NCBI GenBank assembly: GCA_016207165.1
Contig: JACQQD010000005.1
Coordinates: 98,736-162,735, forward strand
Origin: Candidatus Micrarchaeota archaeon
GTDB taxonomy: Archaea; Micrarchaeota; Micrarchaeia; Norongarragalinales; Norongarragalinaceae
Length of the DNA: 64,000 nucleotides
Direction: 5' to 3'
Shown: positions 48,576-56,253 of the stretch, in pieces
Position numbering within the stretch: position 1 is the stretch's first letter
Layout: each line of letters starts with the position of its first letter
Notes under the pieces: generated by a model
What the model was told of the DNA's origin: nothing
The model's input: only the letters and a program-made list of their open reading frames with translations
The model's database searches: none
Translations under genes and position numbers: made by a program

Positions 48576-49616
48576 TTACTTGGAAATTGTTCCCAGCAAT
48601 TTGACGACTTGCGGCTCGTACCAACCCGTTTCCGTGTTGTATCGCAAGTACACGATGTTCTCCGACAACTCCGGGTCTATCAGATCCCCCAATGAACGGT
48701 GGTAGGATTCCAACGTCTGCCGGCGAAGCGTGGGTTCCTGCAAGTGCTCGACCAATCCGGCGTGGTAGGGAGCGAAGTAAATGCTGCCGTTCACGCGTCG
48801 CCCGGCCTCCGCGAACTGCTTCATGAGCGCCCGCGTCTTCTCCGCCACCACGGCATTGCGCAAATCAATGGCGGCCCCCACCGACGAAAAATCGGAAAGC
48901 AGGCGGCGCTCCACCTCTCTTACCCCCGAAATCTCGCCGTCTACCGTCAAATGATCCGCCATGGCACTACGCACAACGCCCTCGTGCTTGAAAAACGACC
49001 CAAGAGTCGTACCCGCGGCCAACAATGTACTGGACGCCAACAGCGTTTTCAGGAAACGCCTCCGCCCCGGCGAAAAACCCTTGCCTGAACCGACGTCTTT
49101 CCTTGAAATCTTCAGCCACGGCAAAACCGACAAAAAGGCGCTGGACGCCTGCACCCAAACCCCCCGCTTCCGTCCCCGCGCTTCACGCTGGTCTTGCTCC
49201 AACTTCATGGCGGGCCGCTTCACCACGTCAACGAACACCAAATCCGGCGTGTGAACGGCCACCTCTTTTTGGAACCGCGTCAAATGCCCCCGTCGATCCT
49301 CTCGATGTTCCCAAAGCATGTGGTTGATGTTTACCGCCAACATCGGCCCAAAGCGTTCCCGGAAAAACTTTTCCCTCACTTCGGCAGCGGCACTTCGGAT
49401 TTCGGCAGGCAACGCCAAACTTAACTCCAGCAACACCACGTTTTGGCCTTCCAGTGACGCATGCGGATTCGGAAAACCAATCACGCTCCCGCTGGGAAAC
49501 CCGTTTACATCCAGCGGCCGCGTATCCTTGAACCGCTCGGCTTCCTCCAGACTATGGTGGCGCACCAACGCCACCCGCATGACGCCTTCCGGAAACCCAA
49601 GCGTTTTGATCCCCAT
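48576..49616 (-). CDS. hypothetical protein with internal Arg-rich hydrophobic segment (SPGRRRFLKTLLASSTLLAAGTTLG, TAT-signal-like/TM)
   Basis: 346-aa ORF; no recognised catalytic motif; may actually start at an internal Met preceding the RRRF segment. Confidence 0.4.
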   Translation of the reverse strand: MGIKTLGFPEGVMRVALVRHHSLEEAERFKDTRPLDVNGFPSGSVIGFPNPHASLEGQNVVLLELSLALPAEIRSAAAEVREKFFRERFGPMLAVNINHMLWEHREDRRGHLTRFQKEVAVHTPDLVFVDVVKRPAMKLEQDQREARGRKRGVWVQASSAFLSVLPWLKISRKDVGSGKGFSPGRRRFLKTLLASSTLLAAGTTLGSFFKHEGVVRSAMADHLTVDGEISGVREVERRLLSDFSSVGAAIDLRNAVVAEKTRALMKQFAEAGRRVNGSIYFAPYHAGLVEHLQEPTLRRQTLESYHRSLGDLIDPELSENIVYLRYNTETGWYEPQVVKLLGTISK

Positions 49617-49760
49617 TTACGTAACCCTCTTTTCAAAGCCCAGCGACTCGGCTTTGCCCCCGATTCATGTCCAACGCCCGACGTTTGTGTGAGTATTTAA
49701 CCCATTAAATCCATTGCTTTAATCGGTCCAATCCATGATTCCAATGCGAGATGCGGTTTT

Positions 49761-51998
49761 GTGAACATCAAACTCCTATTCATCTTATTCGTCCCGCTTT
49801 TGTTGATGGGCTGCACCACCATCCAACCGCCTCCAACCCCAAGTCCCGTTGTGTCGATTCCCCCTATCGTTTCCCCCAGTCCAAGCCCGGCTCCCACGTG
49901 CCCGCCCATCGCCATGCCGGACTGCATCAACGGTTTCCTGACGTACCCCAACGGCGAAACCGACCAAAACAATTGCCCCGTCTCTCCGGTCTGCGCGGCC
50001 TGCCCCGTCATCGCCGTTCCCGACTGCATCAACGCGGAACTGACGTACCCCAACGGCGAGCGCGACGTGAACGGCTGCCAACTTGCTCCCGTCTGCACGT
50101 CCTACCCGACTCCAACCACCGACCGCCTGGATTTTTCCACAGGCAAGCAAGCGTTCAACATCCAGCAAGACGACGCCGTCCAACCTGACGTATCCTTGTC
50201 TTTCGTCCGCATCCAATCTTCTCTGACGCGCCCGGACCAAAAGCCGTTCGTCGTGGACGAAGCCAACGACCTCCGCGTGGACACGCTGTACTACGTCACG
50301 GACTCCCGAAAAACGGGAGGCATCGCGCAAGGAACCATTCTCTATCAGGACCCAGGAAGTTCGTTTTACAACGTGTTCGTCCATCCCGACGCCCAAGTAC
50401 AATCCAGTCGCCGCGTCACGAAAAACCACGTCCGCTACCGTTTTGCCGACGCACCCCAAGACGTGCTCTGGGACTTCAACGCCAACGCCATCGAATCCAA
50501 CCAACCCGCCGACTTACAGGACTTCGTCATCGTTCTTCCCGATGCGACGTTTGCCGCTTCGCCGGACGGATTCTTTGAAATCGACGTGGGCAACGGTGAC
50601 TCCGACCAGCCACGCTTCAACGCCGCTTCGGGCCCAGGCGGCATTGCATACCGCGGCGTCTTGCGCCAGCCTGGATTCGTCTCGCCCCGCGATAGCCAAA
50701 TCGCCTTGTACGACTTGTATCACGTTCAAATCGACTACGCGGTGGATGAACGTCTTCAAGGCGTTTTCCTGAAAGAAGGCCAGCAACTCGCCGTCCTCCA
50801 ATCCAACATCCAACCCGTCCACGCGGTACTGACGGAACTGGAAGCCGACGGCACCGCGCATTTTGACCTGCGTGAAGGCCCGGTTCAAGGCTCAACTCTG
50901 TTTGCTCAAACCACGATTGAGCCGGATAACAAGTACATCGACGTAACCAAGAACGTACAATTAGACTACCTCCGCTTTGAACCCGATTTTGAAGGCGGGC
51001 CCTACGCCAAAGCCTCGTTCAACGTGCACGACACCAACGTGGTTCCCTCCCCCACGCCGTCGCCCACTCCTTCGCCTTTCCCCGCGTCCGTGACGAAAGC
51101 CAAGTTCTTCGTTTTCGACCGCGCGCAAACCTGCTTGGTCGGCGACGCATGCACCAGCGGCAACTGCTGCACGTTCGGCAGCCTCCGCGTCGAAAACAAC
51201 GCCAACCTGCGCCTGGCCACGCCCACGCAAGCCGCGTCGCTTTCCACCGCCGTCAAACAATGCGGGTCGTCAGAAATTGACGCCGCGGAATTTTCGCGAA
51301 TCCAAAACCAGGTCCAGAATTTCTCGAACTTCGTCCGCACGCAAACCCACGGCGCGCTCAACGTGGAAACGGAGATCATTCACCTTGACTCGGAGCTTGA
51401 ATTGACGAAAGTCATGGAGTGCCGCTACTATCCAGGCCCCTGGAACGTGCGCAACCTTCTTTCGCCGCACGTGAAACCCGACACGGACTTTGAATTCGTC
51501 ATTTACGACGAAGACTATTCATTCGGCCAAGTCCAAGCCGGGTCCGCCTGGACGTTGGCCCTGGATTCTCTGGGCCCGGACTCCATCGGCGGCGCCGGTT
51601 ATTCCTCCATCACCAAGAACATGGATTTCGGCTCCGAACCGCTGGTCAACTTCATCACCAACGAGTGGGGCTGGCAGTTCATGGCCGCCCTGAAAACCAA
51701 AGTCACGGACCCGAAAACCACGCGCATTTACGCGGCCGAAGACCGGTTGCCGGCCTGCGGCCAACCCGAAGCCGATTACCTGCCCACCATAGAATCCTGC
51801 GGGTTTGACCCCGATTATCCGGCGTGCAGTCAATCCGTTTGCCCGGACACGCAAGCCTACCGCGGCCACGTACTATCGGAACACTACAACCCGGCGTGGA
51901 AGTTCATTGGCAACCACTGCCGCGACGGCAAAAAGGATTTCGGCGAACAAGGAATCGACTGCGGCGGCCAATGCCCGGCATGCATTATCGTTGACTGA
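49761..51998 (+). CDS. large secreted lipoprotein (lipobox LLMGC) with two tandem Cys-rich ~36-aa modules and Cys-rich C-terminus
   Basis: MNIKLLFILFVPLLLMGC; tandem CPxIAxPDCINxxLTYPNGExDxNxCxxxPVC; C-terminus ...DCGGQCPACIIVD. Confidence 0.65.
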   Translation: MNIKLLFILFVPLLLMGCTTIQPPPTPSPVVSIPPIVSPSPSPAPTCPPIAMPDCINGFLTYPNGETDQNNCPVSPVCAACPVIAVPDCINAELTYPNGERDVNGCQLAPVCTSYPTPTTDRLDFSTGKQAFNIQQDDAVQPDVSLSFVRIQSSLTRPDQKPFVVDEANDLRVDTLYYVTDSRKTGGIAQGTILYQDPGSSFYNVFVHPDAQVQSSRRVTKNHVRYRFADAPQDVLWDFNANAIESNQPADLQDFVIVLPDATFAASPDGFFEIDVGNGDSDQPRFNAASGPGGIAYRGVLRQPGFVSPRDSQIALYDLYHVQIDYAVDERLQGVFLKEGQQLAVLQSNIQPVHAVLTELEADGTAHFDLREGPVQGSTLFAQTTIEPDNKYIDVTKNVQLDYLRFEPDFEGGPYAKASFNVHDTNVVPSPTPSPTPSPFPASVTKAKFFVFDRAQTCLVGDACTSGNCCTFGSLRVENNANLRLATPTQAASLSTAVKQCGSSEIDAAEFSRIQNQVQNFSNFVRTQTHGALNVETEIIHLDSELELTKVMECRYYPGPWNVRNLLSPHVKPDTDFEFVIYDEDYSFGQVQAGSAWTLALDSLGPDSIGGAGYSSITKNMDFGSEPLVNFITNEWGWQFMAALKTKVTDPKTTRIYAAEDRLPACGQPEADYLPTIESCGFDPDYPACSQSVCPDTQAYRGHVLSEHYNPAWKFIGNHCRDGKKDFGEQGIDCGGQCPACIIVD

Positions 51999-55624: not shown

Positions 55625-55683
55625 TGCGTTTCGCACTCGTGGACCAGGAACCCTTTTTATCCGCCTTTCCCCTTTGAATTTCC

Positions 55684-56253
55684 ATGCGCATCAACCCCTG
55701 GCACACGTTCTTCACTCTCTTGTTTTTCGCGCTTCTGTACTCGTTTGCCAACGCCCCCGAAGAACTCGCCGTCCTTTTGGTGGTGGCCTACCTCTTGGCA
55801 AGACTGACGTTTTTTCCCATCAAGCGCTTTTTCTTCAGGAAAGCCGTGGCCTTTGACATGGGAGGGGTGGTGACGAAAGGCGACTTTTACACCGAGGAAC
55901 TTGTGGAAATGGAGGGAACCCGCGACTTGGTCGAGCGCCTCAAAGTCGGCCACAAAGTGGCCTTGTTGACGAACAACAACGCCCTGGCTTTCGGGGCTTT
56001 TGACCGAAAATTCGGGTTGAGCCAGTTGTTTGACGTGGTCATCGTCTCCGGAAAAGAAGGCGCCAAGAAACCCGACGAAGCTTTGTTCAAGATCGCGTTG
56101 AGAAAACTCCACGTGCGCTCCCACGACTTGTACTTCTTGGATGACGCGCCGGCCAACGTGGAAGCCGCGAAAAAGCTGGGCATCCACGGCATCGTGTTTA
56201 AAGACGCCACACAAGCGGAAGCCGAACTCAAAAAGGCGGGCCTGAGGTTCTGA
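55684..56253 (+). CDS. HAD-superfamily hydrolase with N-terminal TM segment
   Basis: motif I AFDMGGVV; ...LTNNN...; motif ...KKPD...; motif IV YFLDDAPANVEAAKKLG. Confidence 0.65.
   Translation: MRINPWHTFFTLLFFALLYSFANAPEELAVLLVVAYLLARLTFFPIKRFFFRKAVAFDMGGVVTKGDFYTEELVEMEGTRDLVERLKVGHKVALLTNNNALAFGAFDRKFGLSQLFDVVIVSGKEGAKKPDEALFKIALRKLHVRSHDLYFLDDAPANVEAAKKLGIHGIVFKDATQAEAELKKAGLRF

Follow-up and report, generated by a model that had tools for sequence, protein, structure and literature searches.

The junction between the RNA polymerase gene rpoA and the ribosomal protein gene rpl30e is occupied, in a 64,000-nucleotide stretch of the metagenome-assembled genome of a Candidatus Micrarchaeota archaeon (GCA_016207165.1, contig JACQQD010000005.1 of 204 kb, positions 98,736 to 162,735; this whole stretch is the window below), by 7.7 kb of DNA with six genes. 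In order, these are isl1, isl2 for a long lipoprotein, genes for a permease of the ABC-2 (type V) kind and for an ABC ATPase, isl5 for a second lipoprotein, and a gene for a predicted hydrolase of the HAD class. The segment is best understood, with a probability that we put at roughly 0.6, as a chromosomal, clade-specific variable gene slot at the rpoA-rpl30e junction of one genus-to-family-level group of Micrarchaeota, and not as an integrated mobile element. It is an ordinary accessory region built from familiar parts, not a new kind of system. A first-pass annotation had seen accessory, envelope-related genes interrupting the superoperon here, and that description stands, the products including two proteins with a lipobox, an ABC-2 exporter and a HAD protein tethered to the membrane.

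An interruption confined to one clade

A total of 160 loci was fetched, 154 of them via scans with RpoA or with its C-terminal third, and the gap counts are based on the 94 archaeal loci that hold both the 3′ end of rpoA and the L30e gene. The gap is 400 nt or less in 85 of these, in keeping with the premise of the first-pass annotation that the two blocks are normally contiguous, and between 400 and 1000 nt in three; the remaining six, with more than 1 kb, all come from the window's own clade. Other Micrarchaeota have the canonical arrangement (L004, L007, L041, L043, L059, L062 and L069). Interruption of the superoperon is unusual, yet a property of the clade. In the window, Pfam domains together with tblastn synteny confirm the rpoH-B-A and rpl30e-nusA-rps12 blocks as the flanks.

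All six open reading frames (ORFs) lie where they had been placed between rpoA and rpl30e. Their GC content at third codon positions (GC3), 0.69-0.79, matches that of the flanking core genes, and for each there are relatives elsewhere, so that they are to be regarded as genes and not as chance ORFs. The intergenic spaces within the slot are 2-236 nt, and none of the slot genes has a paralogue within the 64-kb window. Pfam domains confirmed in the region are ABC_tran, ABC2_membrane_3, HAD_2, L7Ae/L30e, NusA-type KH and Rpb1 domains 1-5. An assembly chimera or scaffolding artefact at the rpoA-isl1 boundary was also considered; it is ruled out by an independently assembled Logan contig, L160, which crosses the junction and is 100% identical to window positions 48286-49928 (the end of rpoA, isl1 and the start of isl2).

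The same junction in relatives

A word-indexed protein search gave four full-length orthologues of the permease (55-87% identity, 564-566 aa), all on Micrarchaeota contigs and each adjoining rpoA; pattern-based scans with the permease, one of metagenomes and one of viral contigs, gave no match. In the closest relative, L155 (RpoA 95% and RpoB′ 97% identical), a convergent permease gene (87%) lies 55 nt past rpoA and is followed by the ATPase gene (82%), isl1 and isl2 being absent. Relative to L155, the 3.4-kb isl1-isl2 block is specific to this genome. A further set, L156, L157 and L158, consists of an NCBI Micrarchaeota metagenome-assembled genome and two Logan contigs (RpoA 80-82% identical where present, permease 56%) and has the order rpoA, a PIN-like/DUF3368 gene beside a UPF0175 gene, a gene for a small EF-Tu-domain-2 protein, permease, ATPase. 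After the ATPase gene L156 and L157 continue with a divergent gene for a 979-aa lipoprotein and then with the HAD gene (76%), and the L158 contig stops inside the ATPase gene. L159 (permease 57%) shows rpoA, the small EF-Tu-domain-2 protein gene, the permease-ATPase pair and then a divergent lipoprotein gene of more than 682 codons.

The content of the slot is further altered in other close relatives. L081 has a layout of the L156 type, but its permease is reduced to the last 69 codons, directly beside the HAD gene (8083-8292, minus strand; 61% identical to window residues 497-564), and this stub is the remnant of a deletion that took the rest of the operon together with the lipoprotein gene. 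In L082, L083 and L141 the slot holds the HAD gene and two small ORFs only (those of L082, at 11908-12485, without a domain match). That of L084 holds a HepT/nucleotidyltransferase pair, an isl1 homologue of opposite orientation, a PIN fragment, a further gene for a lipoprotein and that for HAD. Pairs of toxin-antitoxin type recur in the slot, as PIN-like/DUF3368 with UPF0175 (L081 6764-7553, L156 7646-8437), as HepT with a nucleotidyltransferase (L084 3307-3925) or as the two small ORFs of L082. The HAD gene is present in more of the close-relative junctions than any other slot gene: orthologues 67-76% identical are at the junction in L081-L084, L141 and L156/L157, upstream of L30e wherever the contig reaches that far. 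It is kept where the ABC genes are lost, and from this persistence it can be regarded as independent of them.

A stand-alone protein of 82-89 aa resembling EF-Tu domain 2 is encoded between rpoA and the permease gene or its remnant (L156 7199-7447, L159 4875-5144, L081 7819-8070); the window has no such gene.

Of the more distant relatives, with RpoA 58-71% identical, some show the canonical arrangement; in L085 a rpoA-L30e gap of 0.66 kb contains an acylphosphatase gene, and in L099 the junction has genes for arginine decarboxylase and deoxyhypusine synthase. Unrelated housekeeping genes follow rpoA in L001-L003, L086 and L087, and the genes after rpoA in distant relatives include those for FtsZ or aminotransferases. 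The sequences that follow rpoA in L001-L003 and L009 showed no similarity to the window by tblastx.

That the whole 7.7 kb was recently acquired, by horizontal transfer and integration between rpoA and rpl30e of this genome, would fit with isl1 and isl2 being almost without full-length relatives and absent from L155, whose permease gene ends 55 nt from rpoA, and with the relatives from the genome collection (L001-L003) sharing none of the slot genes. However, relatives with 80-95% RpoA identity have four of the six genes at the same junction, three of them as orthologues (those for ATPase, permease and HAD) and isl5 in part. The marks of integration that had been suggested, flanking repeats or tRNA fragments, are also missing: the sole tRNA gene of the window is at 27331, about 21 kb from the slot, there are no direct or inverted border repeats flanking it, and none of the six genes has a Pfam domain of an integrase or transposase. 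Base composition does not shift, slot GC being 0.56-0.59 and GC3 and codon use equal to those of core genes, and the viral-contig scan revealed no viral relatives of the permease. A recent indel would account for no more than the 3.4-kb isl1-isl2 block, and even there kinship of one isl2 domain (domain A, below) to lipoproteins of the relatives points to local reshuffling. Recent acquisition of the whole is unlikely. The region is not an island peculiar to this genome: of its genes only isl1 and isl2 are so, relative to L155, and not the ATPase-permease pair, which adjoins rpoA in all four relatives for which permease contexts were fetched. Conservation of gene order among relatives, which would speak for a lineage-typical arrangement, goes about half way: where contigs are long enough the divergent lipoprotein gene is found in L156/L157 and L159 and the HAD gene in L156/L157.

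The ABC ATPase-permease pair

The permease gene (52001-53704, minus strand; 567 aa) and the ATPase ORF (53697-54704, minus strand) are co-directional, with the end of the ATPase gene overlapping the start of the permease gene by 8 nt; the common direction and the overlap make them an operon. The description of the pair as convergent holds for its relation to isl2 and rpoA, and not for that of the two genes to each other. Though the ATPase ORF extends to a TTG at 54704, its orthologues (317-320 aa) align from residue 17 or 33 onward, and since the alignments begin at residue 17 the start is probably Met17 at 54656, i.e. the gene would be 53697-54656.

The ATPase matches PF00005 at 5e-28. It matches DrrA1-3_C weakly (20.9 bits, below the gathering score of 27.4), and its best NCBIfam match, TIGR01188 (drrA), at 213 bits is below the cut-off of 312.45, so that it is DrrA-like but does not pass the subfamily model. 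The permease passes the Pfam models PF12698 (118.9 bits, cut-off 31.6; 3.5e-34) and PF01061 (88.6 bits, cut-off 26.9; 5e-25), and fails all NCBIfam subfamily models, those for YhgE/Pip and SagH included. From hydropathy and an AlphaFold2 (AF2) model its topology is a first transmembrane helix (TM1), an ectodomain and then five or six more membrane helices. With TM1, ectodomain, C-terminal transmembrane (TM) bundle and a partner ATPase gene, it belongs with the ABC-2 permeases.

Its distinctive feature is a helical stalk. When the window copy and the four orthologues were aligned with ten ordinary bacterial ABC-2 permeases of about 370 aa, TM1, an ectodomain base of about 120 aa and the C-terminal TM bundle proved common to the aligned proteins, and an insertion of about 190 residues was present in 5/5 of the Micrarchaeota permeases and 0/10 of the bacterial homologues. 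It comprises residues ~134-332 (52709-53305, minus strand; alignment and AF2), for which AF2 gives three helices, 134-203, 209-244 and 248-332, and there are weak matches to coiled coils of the SMC type. Helices of 70-85 residues would, if straight, span some 10-12 nm. What had been taken for a 330-aa extracellular coiled-coil domain is actually a canonical ABC-2 ectodomain of about 120 aa plus this helical insertion. The best Foldseek match of the model is the Tribolium ABCH-9C ceramide exporter (PDB 8z01, E 3e-7), with ABCG1/2/5/8, ABCA4/1, KpsM, NosY and the Thermotoga ABC-2 ectodomain 3cni as further matches. By alignment and model the permease is a subunit of a type V ABC exporter, a standard one but for its unusual, clade-restricted stalk.

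A different identity had been proposed for the permease, that of a YhgE/Pip-type protein (phage infection protein, or EsaA-like) serving as receptor or secretion component and not as transporter. The topology of one TM helix, a long helical ectodomain and C-terminal TM helices is indeed the same, and TIGR03062 is matched weakly (9e-7). Nevertheless the score is 28.7 bits against a cut-off of 102.2, the N-terminal model TIGR03061 is undetected, and the top Foldseek matches include neither an EsaA nor a YhgE structure. The 8-nt overlap, moreover, couples translation of the permease to that of an ATPase, and both the TM domain of the permease and the base of its ectodomain can be aligned with the ordinary 370-aa ABC-2 permeases. 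The YhgE/Pip assignment is very unlikely to be right and the type designation given earlier is best dropped.

Also at issue is the earlier suggestion of bacteriocin or lantibiotic immunity, or peptide export, with the lipoproteins as immunity or accessory proteins. In Firmicutes, ABC-2 pairs with accessory lipoproteins do serve bacteriocin or lantibiotic immunity, and here the ATPase scores 137.6 bits with TIGR03740 and the permease 48.1 bits with SagH (NF038293). Both scores are far under the respective cut-offs (309.75 and 450), and for the ATPase TIGR03740 ranks lower than several other sub-threshold matches, DrrA, NodI and RbbA among them. The slot has no gene for a precursor peptide, a modification enzyme or a protease, and the operon in relatives adjoins a gene for a DsbA-domain lipoprotein, not peptide genes. 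The suggestion goes back to generic, sub-cut-off similarity among ABC ATPases and is quite improbable. A defence-system reading was tried and rejected, PADLOC having given only generic ABC ATPase and coiled-coil similarity.

Location next to rpoA raises the issue of whether the slot genes are functionally tied to the flanking transcription and translation operons, for instance by co-regulation with rpoA or rpl30e, a comparison being ribosome-associated RbbA. Several relatives conserve the rpoA-rpl30e location, and RbbA is the best NCBIfam match of the permease, but with a score of 64 bits where the cut-off is 1050. The two ABC genes run towards rpoA on the other strand, and 19 nt past the rpoA stop is an oligo-T run (eight Ts, 48562-48569, plus strand, read from the sequence), a tract of the type used by archaeal terminators and here a predicted one. 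Relatives lose the ABC genes without disturbing the flanks, and more distant ones have unrelated housekeeping genes at the same place. A functional tie of this sort is very improbable.

The lipoproteins

The product of isl2 (HY572_02900; 49761-51998, plus strand; 745 aa) begins with the hydrophobic sequence MNIKLLFILFVPLLLMGC, has a lipobox ending at Cys18 and contains 23 Cys residues. It had been called a Cys-rich lipoprotein, which is accurate as far as lipobox and Cys count go; the protein is, though, not simply Cys-rich, since it carries a degenerate metzincin-like domain. Its layout is two 34-aa Cys repeats, domain A, a Pro/Thr linker and domain B, and in a full HMMER scan of 1.84 billion representatives relatives were found domain by domain only. 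The tandem repeats (CP.IA.PDCIN..LTYPNGE.D.N.C...PVC; 49899-50102, plus strand) constitute direct repeat D1, 2 x 102 nt with 73% identity, and residues 43-113 match a few proteins. Domain A (residues ~110-330; 50088-50750, plus strand; HMMER and a pairwise match) shares 33% identity (E 3e-26) with the C-terminal portion of the 979-aa L156 lipoprotein, which is encoded at the isl5 position; its few other matches include one protein with a class III signal peptide. From this sharing, the lipoprotein genes that flank the ABC operon have exchanged or split domains.

Domain B (residues ~440-741; 51078-51983, plus strand) has a metzincin-like fold, with a zincin fold and active-site helix in the model, and ends in the Cys motif GNHCRDGKKDFGEQGIDCGGQCPAC. 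The zinc-binding motif HExxH is absent: in place of the family consensus HEWLHQ, isl2 reads NEWGWQ, and its two closest homologues likewise lack the motif histidines. At E<=1e-10 isl2 has matches in 91 representative clusters, for the most part through domain B. In ten matched proteins that were checked, the domain B stretch has no Pfam match apart from one weak match to Astacin; some of the proteins carry CARDB, dockerin or peptidoglycan-binding domains or a MopE motif elsewhere, and one named member is from an Aenigmarchaeota archaeon. The family consensus joins HEWLHQ to a C-terminal Cys motif, GNHCRDGxxDxGETGVDxGGxC, and in some other proteins this terminal motif occurs by itself, repeated up to 17 times.

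The product of isl5 (54716-55624, plus strand; 302 aa), whose gene is divergent from the ABC operon, has the lipobox FFSGC, a Pro/Thr/Ser-rich linker and two repeated domains of about 80 aa, in agreement with its first description as a PT-rich lipoprotein. Counterparts of its N-terminus and small domains are present in the lipoproteins of L156 (979 aa) and L159 (>682 aa), whose genes have the same divergent position. Those two (L156 1428-4367 and L159 2-2047, both minus strand) carry a Thioredoxin_4/DsbA domain (E 4e-27 and 2e-25), and isl5 is without it. As an aside, an extracellular oxidoreductase of this DsbA type may be what the many Cys-rich proteins on the surface of these organisms require. 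Sequence searches against solved structures gave no match for isl1, isl5, the N-terminal half of isl2 or the domain B profile.

isl1 and the HAD protein

For isl1 (HY572_02895; 48576-49616, minus strand; 346 aa) the sole match among 5.8 billion proteins is the protein itself, and Pfam, NCBIfam, PADLOC and the PDB gave none. L084 nevertheless has a homologue at this junction (4050-5120; 25% identity over 314 aa, E 2e-19), so that on present alignments isl1 forms a family of two members, one in the window and one in L084. The internal RRRF segment to which attention had been drawn is there and is conserved: residues ~184-207 have a GRRRFLK motif followed by a weakly hydrophobic, Ala/Ser/Thr/Gly-rich stretch, with SRRRFLW aligned in L084. 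Both are twin-arginine motifs in form, after the consensus (S/T)RRxFLK (GRRRFLKTLLASSTLLAAGTTLG in isl1, SRRRFLWAGGISLLAAAAGVVGG in the L084 homologue). The stretch after the motif in isl1 is below the TM hydropathy threshold of 1.6, being less hydrophobic than a typical TM helix, and the motif begins at residue ~184 and not in the N-terminal location of a twin-arginine translocation (Tat) signal. That the ~140 residues before the motif are coding follows from their conservation between the two homologues.

The last slot gene (55684-56253, plus strand) had been put down as encoding a membrane-anchored HAD hydrolase, and as a prediction this is upheld. The protein belongs to HAD-IA by PF13419 (56.6 bits, cut-off 23.8; 4.5e-15) and TIGR01509 (58.8 bits, cut-off 29.4), and has an N-terminal hydrophobic anchor, then a basic stretch, and a very short cap region. 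Motif I reads FDMGGV, so that the first Asp of the canonical DxD is kept and the second is replaced by Gly, in the window and in orthologues alike. The corresponding position in E. coli YihX has DLGN. Among solved structures the nearest relatives of the slot protein are small phosphatases of the HAD class, PH1655 and YihX for example.

History and possible role of the slot

An older core of the slot would have consisted of the ABC-2 operon, a fast-evolving divergent gene for a surface lipoprotein and the gene for a membrane-tethered HAD phosphatase. To this, isl1 and isl2 would be a later addition of 3.4 kb in the spacer on which rpoA and the permease gene converge, while in related genomes the core may have shed some of its parts, or the slot may have acquired toxin-antitoxin pairs. 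The exporter would be assembled from two copies each of ATPase and permease and might move a lipid-like or other amphipathic envelope component outward, or else transmit ATP-driven movement via its stalk, with the neighbouring lipoproteins as possible extracellular partners. That it does one or the other, moving an amphipathic envelope component or driving an extracellular partner, is put forward tentatively, at clearly less than even odds. Presence of a protease-like domain without the metal-binding histidines suggests that isl2 would be a binding protein rather than an enzyme. A bolder version, a speculation that is probably wrong, has the stalked exporter as an envelope-spanning device specific to these small, probably host-dependent archaea: its three helices would reach towards the surface layer (~10 nm if straight), handing lipids or lipoproteins to or from the cell surface together with lipoproteins of DsbA or pseudo-protease type. 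The nearest solved fold being a ceramide exporter has been noted in its connection.

Several points tell against the interpretation as a variable slot with an exporter at its core. Gene content, conservation pattern, folds and motif loss were observed, and we infer substrate, lipoprotein partnership, stalk function and the direction of gain and loss. The last, an ancestral core with losses as opposed to repeated gains, comes from one remnant and the distribution of the genes, not from a rooted phylogeny. Most of the relatives are short metagenomic contigs, with the full rpoA-L30e slot seen in some only. The permease model is of moderate confidence only (pLDDT 73.7, pTM 0.44), likeness of fold to lipid exporters is family-wide and not substrate-specific, and the divergent arrangement of the lipoprotein genes could reflect shared promoter space only.

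The broader relevance is that the most conserved archaeal gene string, running from RNA polymerase to ribosomal protein genes, can hold a rapidly changing slot of surface genes in genome-reduced Micrarchaeota. Leads for further work are the stalked ABC-2 permease (five sequences), the metzincin-like family without a Pfam match, inactive members included, and the two-member isl1 family. None of the three alone changes current understanding.

Flanking genes and side observations

To the left of the slot are rpoH (41533-41805), rpoB of the split kind as rpoB″ (41811-43277) and rpoB′ (43274-45082), and rpoA (45079-48543, plus strand; 1154 aa). To the right, rpl30e (56490-56807, plus strand) is followed by nusA (56812-57225) and then by rps12, rps7 and EF-2, the block ending at 60673. 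The window rpoA is a fusion of A′ and A″, with Pfam Rpb1 domains 1-5 within one ORF, and counts of in-frame stops show that the ORF is uninterrupted in all close relatives. Over all the loci fetched, 61 have the fused form without interruption, those of the close relatives and others labelled Woese-/Pacearchaeota, Bathyarchaeota and Altiarchaeota included, a sample biased to fused forms by the query itself being fused. Separate A′ and A″ genes are present in Micrarchaeota at 51-56% identity (L041, L043, L059, L062 and L069). Literature searches on fused rpoA in Micrarchaeota and on coiled-coil ABC-2 proteins of the YhgE kind yielded nothing usable.

The spacer of 236 nt between the HAD gene and rpl30e has, read by eye, a short ORF of about 43 codons (MNKKIEIHLVRLKILQEQ...; 56257-56388, plus strand) and an A/T-rich element, CTTTAAAAAC, at ~56384-56393. 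By tblastx the ORF has no relative, the sole similarity being one of 20 codons on the other strand, in the part of the spacer next to L30e. Scans of the locus for sigma-70 promoters and intrinsic terminators, with models unsuited to archaea, came out at or below shuffle expectation.

Comparison with known systems

The metzincins that domain B of isl2 resembles in fold, adamalysin/ADAM proteins and the inactive ADAM22 among them, have 5-11% sequence identity to it. They differ from the domain B family in that its HEWLHQ lacks the GxxH extension, and isl2 in addition lacks the zinc-binding histidines at the motif positions.

With YhgE/Pip proteins (TIGR03061/TIGR03062) the permease has in common a C-terminal TM domain related to ABC-2 and a long extracellular region that is mostly helical, but it is shorter, is paired with an overlapping gene for an ABC ATPase and fails the family model. 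Likeness to ABC-2 or type V exporters (DrrA-like ATPases; ABCH-9C, ABCG1/2, ABCA4/1, KpsMT and NosFY) extends to separate ATPase and permease genes in one operon, to the sequence of TM1, ectodomain and TM bundle, and to an ectodomain base like that of Thermotoga 3cni. The departure from them is the three-helix insertion of ~190 residues, known in five Micrarchaeota sequences only. NosDFYL-type complexes, where an ABC-2 permease gene is likewise near genes for envelope lipoproteins and from which NosY is among the fold matches, show by precedent that an ABC-2 pair may serve extracellular partners and not pump a solute alone. There is, however, no homologue of NosD, NosL or NosZ, and partnership is suggested solely by the divergent arrangement conserved in three lineages.

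As a whole, the slot is comparable to the plasticity zones that collect toxin-antitoxin modules and surface genes, with one junction and differing content: toxin-antitoxin pairs, lipoproteins, remnants and reshuffled domains. It differs from them in having no mobile-element genes and in being situated inside the otherwise very stable rpoH-B-A/L30e-nusA-S12 superoperon of archaea.

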